NCBI GenBank assembly: GCA_963791045.1
Contig: CAWBQK010000007.1
Location: 128,001-192,000 of the forward strand
Source: Candidatus Latescibacterota bacterium
GTDB taxonomy: Bacteria > Krumholzibacteriota > Krumholzibacteriia > WVZY01
DNA length: 64,000 nucleotides
Direction: 5' to 3'
The translations under genes and the position numbers were made by a program. Below, in pieces: positions 25,864 to 32,597 of the stretch. The notes under the pieces were generated by a model. That model saw nothing but the letters and a program-made list of their open reading frames with translations. It ran no database searches and had not been told where the DNA came from. The first letter of the stretch is position 1. Each line of letters begins with the position of its first letter.

Positions 25864-27108
25864 GTGGAAACATTGAGAACAGAAGCGCGAATAATCGGAA
25901 GCATCGACATGGGGACCACCAAAGTCTCGGCCCTCCTCGGTGAACGGCTGGAAGACGGTATTCGAGTCGTAGGGATCGGTAATGCGCCTTCGGACGGGCT
26001 CAAACAGGGTGTTGTGGTGGATATCGACAAGGCTTCGGCCTCGGTTGAACGTGCGGTGGGGGAAGCCGAACGGATGGCGGGCGTCCATTTAAAGCGCTAC
26101 AACGTGGGTGTGGCCGGCGAACATATCCGGAGCATGAACAGCCGCGGGGTAGTCGGGATTCCCAGCCAGGATCATGAAATCACGCGGGAAGACGTGGTGA
26201 AGACGCTGACGGCCGGACGAAGTTTCGCGCTCCCGTCGGACCGGGAAATCCTTCACACACTCCCGCAGCAGTACATCGTGGACGACCAGGCGGGGATCCA
26301 GGAGCCGTGCGGAATGTACGGTTCGAGACTCGAAGCCCGGATCCATGTGGTCACCGCGTCGAGGCATGCACTCGATAATATTGCAAAAACTCTTGACAAC
26401 ACACGCCTCGAGGTTGGTGAATTGGTGTTGGAGCCCCTCGCATCGAGTGAGGCGGTCCTGACAAGGGACGAAAAAGAGCTTGGCGTGATGCTGATTGACA
26501 TCGGCGGCGGCACGACAGACGTCATGATTTACCATGACGGGGGCGTTATCGCGAGCGGTGTGATCGGTATCGGCGGCAACAACGTGACCGCCGACGTCGC
26601 CTACGGTTTGCGGACGGCGGTGAATTCCGCGGAGACAATAAAGATCGAGCATGGTTGCGCATTGTCAACCATGGTCGACGCGGGAGAGAAAGTAGAAGTT
26701 CCCGGCATAGGGTTTCGGGAAACAAAACAAGTTGGAAGACAACTTCTCTCCGCGATAATCGAACCGAGAGTTACCGAGTTGTTTACATTGATAAACGACC
26801 AGTTGAACAAAAATGATTTCAAGGGAACTTTGGGCGCGGGTGTCGTACTCACGGGCGGATCGTCGCTCTTGATGGGTACCCGCGAGCTGGCGGAACAAAT
26901 ATTCGACGTCCCCGTCAGGATCGGCGCTCCGATCGGTGTCGACGGGCTCGCCGAAGTTGTCAGCCACCCCATGTATGCAACGGGAGTCGGTCTCCTTCGT
27001 TACGACGGTGACGCATACGAAATGGGTGGTTACACACGGATATCCTCTCGCCAGTGGTGGAAGCAGTCATTCAATCACCTTCGGAAGGCAATTGCCAGTT
27101 TCATCTAG
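25864..27108 (+). CDS. ftsA: Cell division protein FtsA
   Basis: 'DMGTTKV', 'DIGGGTTD', 'VLTGG', C-terminal amphipathic helix. Confidence 0.96.
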   Translation: METLRTEARIIGSIDMGTTKVSALLGERLEDGIRVVGIGNAPSDGLKQGVVVDIDKASASVERAVGEAERMAGVHLKRYNVGVAGEHIRSMNSRGVVGIPSQDHEITREDVVKTLTAGRSFALPSDREILHTLPQQYIVDDQAGIQEPCGMYGSRLEARIHVVTASRHALDNIAKTLDNTRLEVGELVLEPLASSEAVLTRDEKELGVMLIDIGGGTTDVMIYHDGGVIASGVIGIGGNNVTADVAYGLRTAVNSAETIKIEHGCALSTMVDAGEKVEVPGIGFRETKQVGRQLLSAIIEPRVTELFTLINDQLNKNDFKGTLGAGVVLTGGSSLLMGTRELAEQIFDVPVRIGAPIGVDGLAEVVSHPMYATGVGLLRYDGDAYEMGGYTRISSRQWWKQSFNHLRKAIASFI

Positions 27109-27129: not shown

Positions 27130-28324
27130 ATGGGTATGCGTTTTCACCTCGATGAAGAGAAGAGGCTGACCGAATTAAAGGTCGTTGGAATCGGGGGCGC
27201 CGGGGGGAATGCCGTTAACCGGATGTTGAGCAGTGGCTTTTCCGGAGTCGATTTTCTCGCTGTGAACACCGATCTTCAGGTGCTTCGCGGCGCGACGGCG
27301 CAGCAGCGGCTTCAGATAGGACAAAAGCTCACGCGCGGCCTGGGGTCGGGCGGTGTGCCGGATATGGGAAGGGACGCGGCGGAAGAAAGCAGGGAAGTTA
27401 TTAAGGAGAGTCTCCAGGGCGCCGACATGGTGTTTCTCACCTGCGGCATGGGTGGAGGCACGGGGACCGGCGCGTCGCCGATCGTTGCGCAGATCGCCCG
27501 CGAGACCGGCGCGCTCACGGTTGGAATCGTTACAAAGCCGTTCTTCTTTGAAGGCGATCAGCGAATCGCGCAGGCGGAAGAGGGAATAGAGGAATTGAAA
27601 CGTGAAGTGGACACACTTCTCGTTATTCCCAACGACAAGCTTCTTGCGATAACCGAGGAGAACACTCCGCTTCTCGACGCGTTTTCAATTGCCGACGAGG
27701 TGCTCTGCAACGCAACCCGTGGAATCTCCGATCTCATTACCGAGACCGGGGTCGTCAATCTTGACTTCGCCGATGTGAAAAGCGTAATGCGGAATGGCGG
27801 CGACGCCATCATGGGTACTGGGATAGCGCGAGGAGATGCGGGCGCCGAGGAAGCTGCAAGAGTTGCGATCAATAGCCCGCTTCTCGACAACGTGTCGATA
27901 AAAGGAGCCAGCGGAATTCTCGTGAATATCACTGGGTCCAAGACCTTGAGTCTCCAGCAAGTGAGTAAGGCCGCGACGATCGTGAACAAGGAAGCGGGAC
28001 CGGGCGTCCATGTATTCCTCGGCGCGGTTATCAATGACTCGCTCGAGGCTGATGAACTCAGCGTGACGGTTATCGCGACAGGATTCAACTCTGCCCCGAA
28101 GAGAAGAGAAGAACAGGTTGAGGAAAAAAAGGCGATCAATTTTACCGAGTTGTTGAGCAAACAGCCGGCATCCGAGATTTCCCTCTCGAAAGAAGAGCCG
28201 GTCGCCGGAAGAGAAAAAAGAGACAAAAGAAGAAGAGACTGTCGTGATAGACAACGGGTCTATCCGTTCGTTCAACTCGGATAATTTCAGGATACCCACC
28301 TTCGTTCGCAAGCAGATGGACTAA
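27130..28324 (+). CDS. ftsZ: Cell division protein FtsZ (single-base frameshift near 28205; conserved C-terminal peptide in the +1 frame)
   Basis: 'GGAGGNA', 'GMGGGTGTG', 'NLDFADV'. The +1 frame from 28208 reads EEKKETKEEETVVIDNGSIRSFNSDNFRIPTFVRKQMD* (stop 28322-28324). Confidence 0.95.
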
Positions 28325-28337
28325 CCTGGAGGTAGAC

Positions 28338-29988
28338 TTGTCGATTTGGAGCCGGTTGTTCCGGGTCTCTGCCGGTGACCAGTATCACAAAGGAATCCGG
28401 TACTTCAACGAAGGTGATTACGACCGCGCCATTGAATGCCTCGAAGAGGTAGTGGCCGGCGATAAAAGCCGCGAAAGCCCCATCGCGAAACTCGGCGCTT
28501 TTTATGCGGCGGAGGCGCATAGCAAGCTCGGGATTGCAGAGTTTCACCGCGAGAACTACGACAAAGCGCTGATCCATTTCAAGGCGGCGCTGCAGGTTAA
28601 CCCGCACTACCCCGACCTCTACTATTATCTCGGCGTCGTGAATCACAAACAGGGTGAACTCGACGTCGCCGTTGAGTATCTGAAAAAGGCGACCGAGCTC
28701 AACCCGGATTATGCAGAGGCGACTTGCTATCTGGGAATAGCGCTCCACGACGGTGGTTATTTCGACCGGGCCGGCAAGTGTTTTTCACACGCTCTGGAAC
28801 TTACCAGGGCGGTGCCCAACCCCCTCAGCCGGCTCCTCATGGATAAGCTCGAATCAAAATCGTTTGAGCATCCTATCCTTCAGGAACTCAAAAACGCGGC
28901 TCTTGAGAATACGAATTTCGAAGAGACCGTGAAAGAGGGTAATCGCGCGTTCAACAACCACGATTACGAGAGGGCGGCCGCGTGTTTTGCGGAGGCCTCC
29001 CACAAGAAGCCCTCCTACGCCGATCTTCACTGCAAACTCGGTTTGGCTTTTCTCGAATTGGGAAGGGATGAGGAAGCGATAGAAAGCCTCAAGCGATCGC
29101 TTCAACAGAATCCAACTTATGTCGAAGCCCTCTATTGTCTCGGAGTGACGTGCTATCAAGGAAAAGATTACGTGGCGAGTCGAGAGCACCTGGAGAGGGC
29201 AGTGGCGTTGAGGCCTGAATACGCGGATATTCACTGCCAACTCGGCATAGCGATGCTCGCGCTGGGAGAATTTGCGGCGGCGAAGGACCGAATTTGAAAA
29301 TGCCGTCGAGATTTCGCAATCTTATGCGAAGGCCCACTACATGCTCGGGATGGCTCTTCATGCGCTGGGTGACAATGATGCGGCGAATGTCGAGCTCAAG
29401 GAATCGCTTGCCCTCACGCCCGACTTGTTTCCCGCGGCAATCGATTCCGGGCTGGCGTGTCTGGGTTCTTCGGATTGGGCGGGTGCGGTGGATCGGTTCA
29501 GCAGAATCATAGACAAGAAACCCGACCAGGCGGACGCGCATTGTTTTCTGGGGATCGCTTGTCTCAACGAAGGTAATCTCGACGAAGCGGGAGAAAGGCT
29601 GTCTCGTGCATTGGAGTTGAACCCGGAGTATGTTGAGGCAAAAAAACAACTCGCGCTTGTTCACTTCAAGAAAGAACGTTACGAGGCGGCGGAACAATTG
29701 ATAAGAGAAGCCGTCGAGATTCATCCCGACTACGCGGATCTGCACAAAATTCTTGGAGACATTTGTTTGGCGCAAGATTATCTGTCACAGGCAAGGCAAG
29801 CGTACGAAGATGCGCTTGCGTCAAACCCCGATTTTTCGGACGCCGTTCTGGGTCTGGTGGTCGCTTTGCGGCGTGATGGCCGCGGAGACGCCGCCGACAC
29901 TATCCTTCGAACCTACCTCGACAGGCATCCTGCTGACCTCGCTGTGCGACTGCTCCTTGCAGACAAGCGGATGCAACTCCTTGATTGA
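28338..29988 (+). CDS. Multi-TPR protein, split by a single-base frameshift near 29285 (ORFs 28338-29297 and 29272-29988)
   Basis: Continuous 'P.YA(D/E)..LG' TPR repeats across both ORFs. Removing one base gives '..FAAAKTEFENAVE..'. GGAGG RBS precedes the TTG start. Confidence 0.8.
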
Positions 29989-30039
29989 CAATGACTAAGA
30001 TCGGAAAACACAAGGTGTGGGTGGGTGCGGGTGGTGATA

Positions 30040-30168
30040 ACCGTCTTGTAAACAGTAAGGAAGGACTCCCAACCAGAGTATCCGAAATCACTTGGACCGA
30101 GAACACAGGAAGAGGAAACAAGTTTCGTCCCAGATAACACGGAGCCACAGCTAGTCGAGAATCCTTCC
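30040..30168 (-). ncRNA. Candidate structured small RNA (long hairpin, 18-bp closing stem, CU-rich apical loop)
   Basis: Minus-strand GGAAGGAUUCUCGACUAG (30168-30151) pairs with CUGGUUGGGAGUCCUUCC (30076-30059) with 4 G-U pairs, which would be A-C mismatches on the plus strand. Inner stems are present and a promoter lies directly upstream. Confidence 0.6.
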
Positions 30169-30175
30169 ATAAATT

Positions 30176-30204
30176 AGTTTAGTTACAAAACTCTGTGCTG
30201 TCAA
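30176..30204 (-). promoter_or_regulatory. Sigma70-type promoter driving the minus-strand hairpin RNA
   Basis: Minus strand TTGACA-N17-TAAACT. The predicted +1 (about 30168-30170) coincides with the 5' end of the stem. Confidence 0.65.
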
Positions 30205-30256
30205 CGCGGCCCGCGCAATTTGTTTATAAAATCAATATAACCAGGTCAAGCAAATG

Positions 30257-30334
30257 CGATAGCTGGCGGGCGTGTTGAGTTCGTTATCTAATTGTTTCCT
30301 CTGTGAATAGGCAATAAGTTTAAACAAACGCTCG
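30257..30334 (+). ncRNA. Second hairpin RNA candidate, apparently paralogous to the minus-strand RNA (or a recG leader element)
   Basis: CGGGCGU/ACGCUCG, UUGAGUU/AGUUUAA and GUU-A-UCUA/UAGG-C-AAU stems (G-U pairs favour plus) close a loop with the same UUGUUUCCUCU motif. Confidence 0.4.
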
Positions 30335-30498
30335 AATGTATGTGAATAATAGAACACAAAAACGGAGACGTTGGATGGGCAGCCGGGGATGGCTGGACGT
30401 TACCTCCGGTCTGGCATAATATCTACGCTTCGATGAATATTTTCATTATTTGAATGGTTTTGGAATCCGATGCGGAATTCGACCGACGGGAGTGACAG

Positions 30499-32597
30499 GT
30501 GGCCGACGCTTCGAAGTTACACAGGCGATCGCTATCGCAAGAGTGCCGTTTCTTGAAGGGAGTCGGACCGGCACGCGCGGAGCGATTGAGGCGTCTTGGA
30601 ATCGAAACGCTCGATGACCTCATTACTCATTTCCCACGGAAATATTACGACCGGCGGAACTTTGCGAAGATCAGCGCTCTTGTCCCCGGGGAAGACTCCG
30701 GTTTCGTCGGGCAGATTCTTTCCGTGGCGGGACGGTCAGCCCGCGGCCGCAGGTCGGTGATTACCGCGGCGGTTGGAGACGATACGGGAATCGTCCAGGT
30801 CGTCTGGTTCAATCAGCCCTACCTCTCCAAGGTTCTCAAAGCGGGAAACGAAATTATCGTAACCGGCGAGCTCTCGCACTTAGGGGAGCGCGGCAGGTCG
30901 TTAATCCCGAGTTCGAACTGCTTGGAACCGACCTGGACCAGGAACTCCTCCACACGGGTCGTATCGTGCCCGTCTATCCGCTTACGCGCGGAGTTTCGCA
31001 ACGATACTTGAGGGAGCTGATAGCGCGCACGCTCGATGAATACAGTGCCACTGTGTTCGAGAACCTCCCTCGATCGCTCGTCGAGTCACAAAACCTTGTT
31101 CCGCGGATCGCGGCACTGCGTGCAATTCACTTCCCGGATGGTGGGGAAGCGTACGAACGGGGTGTTTTGAGGTTCAAAATCGAGGAACTGTTTTATCTTC
31201 AATTGATATTCTCACTTCAGAGGCTTGGACGGACCGACCGCCGCAAGCGCGACGCGCTCGATATCGATTTCGAACTCGAAAATCAATTTGTTGGAGCGCT
31301 CCCATTTGAACTCACCGGAGCCCAGAAAAAGGTTCTCGACGATATCCGATCCGATTTGTCCGGCGCGGAGGGAATGCACCGGCTTCTACAGGGGGATGTG
31401 GGGTGTGGCAAGACGCTCGTGGCCGCGACGACGATGCTGGCCGGAATTGAGGCGGGCAGACAAGCCGCAATGATGGTGCCGACCGAAATACTCGCCAGCC
31501 AGCATCAGAAAACACTGACGAACTTTTTTAAGGGGCTCGACATTTCCGTCGCCCTGCTGATCGGGTCGCTCCCCGCCGCTGAGAAAAGAAGGATCCACAA
31601 GGGGCTTGCGGATGGTTCCATCCCCCTCGTTGTGGGTACGCACGCTCTTATCCAGGAGGGCGTCGAGTTCGACGATCTTGGCGTTGTGATCATTGATGAA
31701 CAACACCGGTTTGGCGTGAGGCAGCGGGCGGCGCTGCTCGGGAAAAAAGGCAATCCGCACATGCTCGTAATGACCGCGACGCCGATTCCCCGGACACTGG
31801 CTCTGACGGCCTATGCCGATCTGGATCTCTCGGTGATCGACGAGATGCCGCCGGGGAGGGCTCCGGTCAAGACCCGGATCGTCGGTCCCCAGAAGCGGGA
31901 AGCGATGTATCGGTTTATCACAGAGGAGATTTCAAAGGGGTTCCAGGCCTATCTTCTCTACCCCGTGATCGACGAGACAGAGAAACAGGATCTCGAAGCC
32001 GCTGTAACCGCCTTTGAAGAGCTCTCCAAGGGCGTATTCCAGGGAATCCCTGTGGGTTTGCTCCACGGTCGCCTGGGCTATGCGGAGAAGGACGCGGTCA
32101 TGGCCGAATTCAATTCCGGGCGGACGAAAGTTCTTGTGTCGACGACGGTTGTCGAGGTCGGTGTCCATGTACCGCAGGCGACGATAATGGCCATCCACCA
32201 TCCCGACCGTTTCGGATTGTCACAGATTCACCAGCTCAGGGGCCGCGTCGGCCGTGGCGGTCACGAGGGATACTGTTTCCTTCTTACCGGAGAGGGGATT
32301 TCCCGAACGGCCGGCGAACGGCTTGAAGTGCTGACCCGTGTGTCCGACGGGTTCGAAATCGCCGAAGAAGATCTTCGGATCCGTGGTCCCGGGGAGTTCT
32401 TCGGCGTACGGCAGCACGGAGTCCCCGGTCTCAAGATCGCGAACCCCGCCCGCGACGCCGTGCTCGTCGAAACCGCGCAAAATCTCGTAAAAAAAATCCT
32501 CCGTGAAGATCCCAGGCTCGAAGGGGCAGAGGCGCGTCCCTGTAGGCGTTATCTCGAAGAACTTGGCGCGGATACGGTGGGCGCCACAATCGGGTAG
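30499..32597 (+). CDS. recG: ATP-dependent DNA helicase RecG (single-base deletion near 30880 splits it into two ORFs)
   Basis: 'LKGVGP', 'RLLQGDVGCGKT', 'DEQHRFGV', 'MTATPIPRT', 'QLRGRVGRG', 'RGPGE'. Adding one T restores 'HFRGARQVVNPEFE...RIVPVYP'. Confidence 0.93.

Follow-up and report, generated by a model that had tools for sequence, protein, structure and literature searches.

What is the strongly structured element that lies between the end of a division and cell wall (dcw) gene cluster and recG, on the strand opposite to both, in a 64,000-nucleotide (nt) stretch of a Candidatus Latescibacterota genome (GenBank assembly GCA_963791045.1, contig CAWBQK010000007.1, positions 128,001 to 192,000 of the forward strand; the whole of this stretch is called the window here)? 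A preliminary description, made from the letters of the window, had proposed that positions 30040..30204 hold an unannotated structured RNA with its own promoter. The analysis presented below indicates that the element is almost certainly a genuine structured small RNA (sRNA) gene, and that its product very likely pairs, through a loop with an invariant core, with a second RNA whose predicted promoter is of the sigma-54 type and whose gene lies on another contig. The source genome is a metagenome-assembled genome (MAG) whose 21 contigs add up to 3.66 Mb, with a completeness of 81% and a contamination of 5.8%. Where genomes and contigs must be told apart they carry G and C numbers, the source genome being G000, such that G000:C7:158050-158171 corresponds to window positions 30050-30171.

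The sRNA is predicted to be a rod-shaped molecule of ~115-135 nt, encoded on the minus strand at ~30169-30036. Its promoter and parts are these:

30176..30204, minus strand: sigma-70-type promoter, with the -35 element TTGACA at 30204-30199, a 17-nt spacer and the -10 element TAAACT at 30181-30176
30050..30171, minus strand: body of the sRNA, a single long imperfect hairpin (the rod), scoring 108.4 bits with covariance model R1
30168-30151, minus strand: 5' arm of the basal helix P1, GGAAGGAUUCUCGACUAG, pairing with 30076-30059
30127..30131, minus strand: GGGAC, 5' side of the helix that closes the apical loop; its GGAC is invariant in 22/22 homologues and it pairs with GUYCC
30104..30120, minus strand: seed in the apical loop, UGUUUCCUCUUCCUGUG, with the core CCUCUUCCUG at 30115-30106 invariant in 22/22 homologues
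30093..30098, minus strand: GGUCCA, 3' side of the helix that closes the apical loop, with UCCA invariant
30076-30059, minus strand: 3' arm of P1, CUGGUUGGGAGUCCUUCC, directly followed by a U run in the sister family
30040..30056, minus strand: small 3' hairpin ACUGUUU-ACA-AGACGGU, then UUAUC; part of the minimum-free-energy fold

When folded with RNAfold, the minus strand from 30030 to 30175 reached -50.8 kcal/mol, compared with -36.0 +/- 3.6 kcal/mol for shuffled sequences (z -4.13), and none of 200 shuffles folded as well. The plus strand reached -29.1 kcal/mol, which 104 of 200 shuffles equaled (z 0.01). Because the z-score is -4.13 on the minus strand and 0.01 on the plus strand, the structure is strand-specific and well beyond chance, in agreement with what the preliminary description had concluded from the G-U pairs of the basal stem. 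The minimum-free-energy fold of the minus strand is a single long hairpin followed by the small 3' hairpin, and it contains both the 18-bp basal stem with four G-U pairs and the ACUGUUU/AGACGGU hairpin (30056-30040) as first described.

The same fold recurs among homologues from two families of one order, the window's own family (f1) and a sister family (f2), all represented by Krumholzibacteriia-type MAGs. In an alignment of 22 sequences that included the flanks, GGAC, CCUCUUCCUG and UCCA were invariant and the stem between them was variable. When folded individually, all sequences gave the same rod, consisting of a basal helix of ~20 bp, a CCG/CGG helix, a variable helix, the GGGAC/GUYCC helix and an apical loop of ~22-29 nt; the core lay within the apical loop in every one of these folds, and the mean cost of opening the loop was 4.6 kcal/mol. 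A MAFFT alignment of 22 sequences, built without reference to structure, was then scored on a 34-pair consensus: 85.2% of its cells were paired, compared with 38.7-58.5% in slid registers, 15 pairs had changed on both sides, and the covariation score was 0.262 against 0.149 in shuffles, none of 500 shuffles scoring as high. An alignment of 31 distinct sequences based on R1, which leans towards the structure of that model, had 87.8% of its cells paired and compensatory changes in 22 of the 34 pairs, with none of 500 shuffles as high on any measure. Changes on both sides affected 16 of the 22 pairs of helix 1 in this alignment, and in the closing helix (pairs 43-47 with 77-81) the pair 44-80 was G-C in 31/31 sequences. 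The covariation that had been named as the check on a structured RNA is thus present. As for the inner stems first proposed, CCG/CGG, the variable middle helix and GGGAC/GUYCC stand on comparative grounds, but the innermost one, GAAAC/GUUCUC, does not, being absent from the sister family. Because this innermost helix is not kept there, the apical loop is larger than the 17 nt originally given, at ~22-29 nt.

The promoter was found where it had been described, as TTGACA-N17-TAAACT, and agrees with the consensus at 10 of 12 positions; a scan of 29500-31100 listed four promoter-like sites where shuffled sequences gave 0.8. Both hexamers are conserved in 22/22 aligned homologues, the -35 TTGAC being invariant and the -10 TAnAnT nearly so, with A2, A4 and T6 of the -10 element invariant or nearly invariant. 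The predicted start of transcription would fall near 30169-30168. The 3' end is uncertain, and is predicted either at ~30050, after P1, or at ~30036, after the small hairpin. In the sister family the basal stem is directly followed by 5-8 U, and the rod itself would therefore be the terminator hairpin there. In the window the basal stem is followed by UUACUGUUU and then by the small hairpin with a poor U tract, and the terminator scan lists no terminator at this place. The small hairpin is retained with altered sequence in the three closest genera (G010, as ACUGUUAACCUGACAGU followed by UUUU, G004 and G012) and is absent elsewhere; possibly it serves as the terminator in the window's sub-lineage.

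An open reading frame (ORF) of 85 amino acids (29913-30170, minus strand) begins at the 5' end of the RNA and was considered as an alternative product. It has no Pfam match, and neither its start codon nor its frame is conserved: other genomes have AUUGG, AUAGA or ACGGA at the position of the ATG, and insertions or deletions of 1-2 bases shift the frame in the alignment.

The sRNA gene is single-copy and confined to a narrow group. A blastn search with the 181-nt element found one copy in the source genome, clear matches in 12/12 genomes of the same family and matches in several genomes of the sister family. Searching 151 genomes of the class with R1 located the sRNA in 30 genomes when the source genome is counted, with matches in 12/12 of f1 and 17/23 of f2; seven further families of the class, sampled with 115 genomes, gave none. 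Of the six f2 genomes with no R1 match, five still gave none with laxer filters (the sixth being G034). The 5' end of recG was not found in four of these five, and only 99 nt separate it from a contig end in the fifth, from which we conclude that the locus is simply unassembled in them. With each prokaryotic species represented by one genome, a pattern scan matched 115 stretches. R1 was applied to 80 of these: eighteen scored at least 73 bits, and the other 62 were chance matches in unrelated phyla. The 18 positive stretches are labeled 'Candidatus Krumholzibacteriia bacterium' (7), 'uncultured bacterium' (6), 'bacterium' (2, being two loci of one MAG), and 'Candidatus Latescibacterota bacterium', 'Chitinivibrionia bacterium' and 'uncultured beta proteobacterium' (one each). 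The sRNA is specific to one uncultured order of Krumholzibacteriia-type sediment bacteria. In one MAG (G008) it appears on two contigs (C40:24-143 and C129:6468-6585), at a contig end in both cases, which is probably an assembly duplicate rather than two genes.

No described RNA family accounts for this element, which is previously undescribed. Rfam 15 gave no match at gathering score anywhere in the 64-kb window, and a search of 29600-30700 at E-values up to 10 returned three chance matches, of which the highest-scoring, RAGATH-5, reached 18.6 bits where the gathering score is 50. The earlier statement that no signal recognition particle (SRP), tRNA or transfer-messenger RNA motifs are visible therefore agrees with the empty Rfam searches, and the SRP and 6S RNAs of the genome are encoded elsewhere. 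Bacterial small SRP RNA (RF00169) has no match at the locus, and its gene lies at C7:60059-60159 (74.7 bits); like the rod it is a single hairpin of ~110 nt, but SRP RNA (4.5S) carries the domain IV motifs, which the rod lacks. 6S RNA (RF00013) shares with it the rod shape, a promoter of its own and a conserved single-copy gene, yet is ~180 nt long with a central bubble between two long helices, compared with ~115 nt and no bubble here; there is no 6S match at the locus, where the rod spans ~110 nt, and the 6S RNA of the genome is at C6:15203-15379 (58.1 bits). A bacterial Y RNA, which would go with a gene for a Ro protein in the genome, usually next to it, was also considered and set aside: PF05731 (TROVE/Ro) had no match in the 81%-complete source genome, and control genomes did match. 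Genes for Hfq, CsrA and TROVE/Ro were not found in the source genome, though at 81% completeness this does not prove their absence.

What the sRNA might act upon was addressed with a genome-wide duplex scan using the loop, UUGUUUCCUCUUCCUGUGUU, in a ranking that excludes the sRNA's own antisense strand. The best site was CACAGGAAGAGGGAACA, on the minus strand of C5 at ~71451-71470, with -29.8 kcal/mol in a 26-nt window. The same 20-mer was a second blast match in many relatives. It lies in this feature:

G000:C5 ~71190-71520 (loci L177 and L187), minus strand: sigma-54 RNA, predicted, ~270-340 nt

The locus is a 550-nt gap between a convergent NFACT-family gene and a gene of 126 amino acids without a Pfam match that adjoins selB. 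On the strand complementary to the sRNA loop, 26 of 30 loci have a -24/-12 promoter, TGGCAY-N5-[TA]TGC; of the four without it, two are interrupted by contig ends and two have the variants CGGCAC and TGGAAT. Downstream on this strand is a GC-rich hairpin with a T run, the T run following the conserved hairpin in 24/26 sequences, and the terminator scan places a terminator on the same strand. At one sister-family locus (L208) the scan flags none, though hairpin and T run are visible. A core of 60 nt is 86-96% identical across the two families. The sequence was found in 36/36 genomes of the order and in 0/115 genomes of the class outside it, where three weak matches cover only the end of the neighboring coding sequence. 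rpoN is encoded in the source genome. A short ORF within the RNA was rejected as its product, the variable hairpins of G012 and G010 differing in length by a number of nucleotides not divisible by three, and the ATG being missing in one genome. Rfam gave nothing for this RNA or four related loci at either gathering or lax thresholds. Judged from these sequence features, the locus probably encodes a second undescribed, non-coding RNA of ~270-340 nt that is sigma-54-dependent.

The evidence that most directly joins the two RNAs is the way in which their sequences change together. With the whole loop, the duplex in the source genome has 28 bp and -39.0 kcal/mol, a 17-bp duplex being extendable to 28 bp. 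Across the 20 genomes in which both sequences are available, cognate duplexes comprise 18-28 bp at -30.8 to -40.2 kcal/mol. Their mean is -35.1 kcal/mol, compared with -31.1 kcal/mol for non-cognate combinations, and none of 10000 permutations was as good, in a test that kinship among these 20 genomes inflates. In an ungapped intermolecular register anchored on the invariant core, positions -5 to +12 were paired in 340 of 360 cells. Outside the core, individual positions have changed on both partners:

register +7: change to A-U in G007
register +8: A-U in 11 and G-C in 9
register +9: U-A in 13, C-G in 3 and U-G in 2
register +10: C-G in 10 and U-A in 9

Matching changes extend across the flank, so that GUGUUC, GUGCUC and GUAUCC in the sRNA face GAACAC, GAGCAC and GGAUAC in the sigma-54 RNA, with further cases in G030 (GUACCC/GGGUAC) and G007 (CCUGAA/UUCGGG). 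In the variable flank from +7 to +12, 113 of 120 cells (94.2%) were paired, compared with 32-57% in registers displaced by 1-3 nt and 74.8% when partners were drawn from the other family. With accessibility included, the net interaction energy averaged -13.3 kcal/mol (range -21.2 to +0.9, n=18). This pattern of change argues that the pairing of the two RNAs is under selection.

Several observations weigh against so direct an interpretation. The genomes are related and not independent, such that the permutation test overstates significance, and about five separate compensatory events were counted rather than twenty. Opening the site in the sigma-54 RNA costs 16.9 kcal/mol on average, two of the 18 net energies are weak (+0.9 and -4.4 kcal/mol), and in the sigma-54 RNA folded alone the site is partly open, with a mean unpaired probability of 0.28-0.91. 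RNAcofold of the full RNAs misses the duplex in three of six pairs; this result is uninformative because RNAcofold cannot model loop-to-strand contact, the contact of a closed hairpin loop with a strand being impossible to represent. Several genomes of the largest sister-family genus have ACAGGAAGAUG at the site, and one has ACAGGAAGCGG, changes that break pairing with the 5' half of the core, and the sigma-54 RNA alone therefore cannot explain why the loop is invariant. The two genes are on different contigs of a MAG that is 81% complete with 5.8% contamination, although both are found across the order. Finally, the U tract at the window's candidate terminator is poor, and the promoter, the RNA ends and the co-expression of both RNAs are predictions from sequence.

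Taking these points together, we favor the interpretation that the sRNA is probably a trans-acting base-pairing RNA whose pairing with the sigma-54 RNA resembles that of an sRNA with its sponge. The sRNA would be made from its strong sigma-70-type promoter and would fold into one long hairpin with a stem free to co-vary, presenting the invariant core CCUCUUCCUG in its apical loop of 22-29 nt. The loop would pair over 17-28 bp with the purine-rich site ACAGGAAGAGG and its flanks, ~50-60 nt from the predicted 5' end of the sigma-54 RNA. Both RNAs would have to meet in the cell, and contact would begin at the open loop. In the window's family the site nucleotides GGAACACA also pair with an upstream UGUGUUCC inside the sigma-54 RNA, an arm whose sequence is identical to that of the sRNA loop's 3' flank; binding would thus displace this 5' arm of the sigma-54 RNA hairpin, which occupies GGAACACA. 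The resulting long duplex could lead to mutual titration or to cleavage by RNase III, which is encoded in the source genome. As with an sRNA and its sponge, less free sRNA would then remain once the sigma-54 RNA is induced, or the relation would run the other way. Titration or co-degradation as the outcome is put forward tentatively, as one possibility among others.

A different arrangement is conceivable, which we consider unlikely: the two RNAs might form an obligate two-part riboregulatory module that is the hallmark of the order, in which a constitutive rod RNA uses its loop to dock onto the 5' arm of a structured RNA induced through sigma-54. The 60-nt core would then be a new ligand- or protein-binding domain, switched on or off as the hairpin arm is displaced. 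The sRNA would in that case not be an ordinary sRNA with a sponge but the trans-acting expression platform for an RNA of riboswitch-like or decoy type.

The 13-mer CAGGAAGAGGRAA occurs 58 times in 36 genomes, compared with six occurrences of the reversed control, and most of the 58 are within the sRNA gene, the sigma-54 RNA or a third RNA. Nine of 16 inspected loci beyond the first two proved to be one conserved locus of the sister family, and the other seven were coding regions or single cases. The conserved locus is as follows:

L218, L219, L222, L223 and L227-L231 (e.g. G019:C8 ~14775): third RNA, ~230 nt, structured, in the sister family

Upstream of it is an AT-rich stretch with TTTACG-N17-TATATT (identified by eye), its 3' end is a hairpin with a U-rich tail, and a long-range helix, GAAGCCGGUACC...GGUAUCGGCUUC, co-varies. 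One member (L184) has no Rfam match at gathering score. The linker site (A)CAGGAAGAGGAAAC matches the 5' half of the sRNA loop. As a second partner, the third RNA would explain why the whole loop is frozen where the site in the sigma-54 RNA varies. A separate locus in one relative (L244, G011:C58 ~9524) has TGGCAC-N5-TTGC and, 14 nt on, CACAGGAAGAGGAAAGGAGAUG, followed by an ORF of only 8 codons; it may be a sigma-54 transcript with an sRNA site at its ribosome-binding site.

The last case touches on the suggestion in the preliminary description that the loop is anti-Shine-Dalgarno-like. In composition this is correct, since the loop is pyrimidine-rich and, as UUUCCUCUUCCUGU, resembles the 16S tail of the genome, CACCUCCUUUCU, and can pair with GGRRGRGG. 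Several strong purine-rich sites, with -21 to -24 kcal/mol, are located 12-30 nt upstream of candidate starts, and in isolated relatives the 13-mer stands 5-6 nt before a start codon (G008:C15 and G020:C66). One could accordingly imagine a general mimic whose CU-rich loop binds the ribosome-binding sites of many mRNAs and represses their translation, the sigma-54 RNA being one binder or a sponge. Such a general role is improbable, however. The loop complement GGAAGAGG is not enriched before starts: of its 223 occurrences, 12 (5.4%) had a candidate start 3-12 nt downstream, compared with 3.3-8.0% for permuted purine 8-mers and 20% for AAGGAGG, all with crude gene calls. None of 16 CAGGAAGAGG sites was near a start, and the invariance of 10 specific nucleotides, rather than of a generic CCUCC, suggests that the partners are specific. 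The search, which did not extend to a comparison of orthologous 5' regions, turned up no conserved mRNA target; the best mRNA-like site (-28.8 kcal/mol, C18) is inside a coding region, in the part encoding QEEE behind a signal peptide. An anti-Shine-Dalgarno role is compatible with the sponge reading, and the loop may have this role for a few mRNAs.

Invariance can also be read as the mark of a bound protein. No variation is seen in GGAC, UCCA or the loop core, not even where they could change without loss of pairing with the partner, and the rod shape and strong promoter would suit a platform or decoy of the 6S, Y or CsrB type, with the match to the sigma-54 RNA as a secondary matter. We regard this as very unlikely for the sRNA as a whole. 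The genome has a separate 6S RNA (58.1 bits), TROVE/Ro, Hfq and CsrA were not found in the 81%-complete assembly, the loop has no GGA motifs, and covariation between two molecules is not expected of a pure protein decoy. The invariant GGAC...UCCA helix might nevertheless be a protein site in addition.

The genomic setting of the sRNA raises one further possibility. The neighboring genes are:

25864-27108, plus strand: ftsA, in the neighboring cluster
27130-28284, plus strand: ftsZ, in the same cluster as ftsA
28338-29297, plus strand: first TPR gene (Pfam TPR families)
29272-29988, plus strand: second TPR gene (Pfam TPR families), last of ftsA-ftsZ-TPR-TPR and convergent with the sRNA
30499-31011 and 30966-32597 (two overlapping frames), plus strand: recG (Pfam RecG_wedge, DEAD, Helicase_C and RecG_dom3_C), divergent from the sRNA promoter

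Gene order, Pfam matches and tblastn synteny all place the sRNA facing the end of ftsA-ftsZ-TPR-TPR, and so bear out the convergence on the dcw operon that had been proposed. In tblastn searches with the window's proteins, the N-terminus of recG was found upstream of the sRNA on the opposite strand at 27 of 30 loci, and the other flank held a homologue of the second TPR gene, again on the opposite strand, at 23 of 30 loci and ftsZ directly at two; at the remaining loci contig ends interrupt, or there was no match within the DNA examined (G012 and G001). The synteny is fixed: the sRNA lies between the last gene of the dcw cluster, be it TPR or ftsZ, and recG, on the opposite strand. The two loci with ftsZ adjoining the sRNA gene (L161 and L169, in G006 and G002) represent two genera and have no homologue of the two TPR genes in between.

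A position so strictly conserved, with the 3' end of the sRNA only ~50-70 nt from the TPR stop codon, would be explained by a local element acting in cis, either as a bidirectional terminator or attenuator of the dcw/TPR transcript or through antisense read-through into TPR or promoter interference with recG. We nonetheless consider this most improbable, since the plus-strand fold is no better than shuffled sequences (z 0.01) and the G-U pairs are specific to the minus strand, promoter and loop are conserved far beyond the needs of a terminator, in the sister family the RNA already stops at a U run of its own ahead of the TPR gene, and the loop has a co-varying partner on another contig.

Other observations concern the region between the sRNA and recG. 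The spacer varies from ~190 to ~510 nt among relatives. In the window it contains a second sigma-70-like site, TTCACA-N18-TAAACT (30317-30346, minus strand), and its plus strand at ~30290-30305, examined by eye, reads UUGUUUCCUCUGUG, which resembles the sRNA loop minus UUCC and is probably there by chance. recG itself is split in the window into a frame with the wedge domain and one with the helicase domains, and is a single frame in relatives (e.g. G010). Because both pieces share one frame in relatives, the split is a frameshift, either real or an assembly error.

Krumholzibacteriota is a phylum known from sediment metagenomes, for which we found no relevant paper on regulatory RNA: none links Krumholzibacteri* with RNA motifs or sigma-54, and the only one combining the name with sRNA is a CsrA survey that is not relevant here. 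The analysis yields an sRNA family with strong covariation support and a likely partner for it; that such a partner is obtained from sequence alone, by way of co-variation between unlinked genes, is uncommon. Two families suitable for Rfam result, plus a third candidate. The link of a sigma-70-type sRNA to a sigma-54-controlled RNA suggests a signal-responsive RNA circuit.

How does this pair compare with systems already described? Qrr, GlmY/GlmZ and CrcZ are sRNAs with a -24/-12 promoter, and the sigma-54 RNA has a conserved promoter of the same kind; unlike them, it has no Rfam match to any of these families. We know of no Qrr-, GlmY/GlmZ- or CrcZ-type sRNA that is paired with a rod-shaped sRNA of the present kind.

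RoxS (RsaE) carries several C-rich regions, and its known mRNA targets are bound at Shine-Dalgarno sites. The sRNA described here has instead a single loop, carried by a rod of 110 nt, with no known mRNA target; its partner is sigma-54-driven and has a large conserved core, and the sRNA has no sequence or structural likeness to RoxS or its sponge RosA and no Rfam match. In Bacillus subtilis, RoxS pairs with RosA, a separately regulated non-coding RNA (PMC8216469). The two systems share an unpaired pyrimidine-rich seed and an RNA partner with separately regulated transcription; the RoxS/RosA pair is also probably Hfq-free, and no Hfq was found here.

In Caulobacter crescentus an inducible RNA, the sponge CrfA, inactivates the constitutive sRNAs SisA-D (PMC12559287). 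Pairing between two non-coding RNAs is what this system has in common with ours. It differs in having been found by Hfq RIL-seq (RNA interaction by ligation and sequencing) and in being Hfq-dependent, its sequences are unrelated, and in the present pair either RNA may take the part of the sponge.

CopA/CopT, RNA I/RNA II and RNA-OUT, which are antisense RNAs of plasmids and transposons, combine a long imperfect hairpin, a first contact through an open loop and a long duplex that can be cut by RNase III, and these antisense RNAs are encoded opposite their targets, so that complementarity is automatic. The present sRNA is like them in its long hairpin with an open loop, and its cognate duplexes are of 18-28 bp. 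It is unlike them in that the two genes are on different contigs, with complementarity kept by co-variation.

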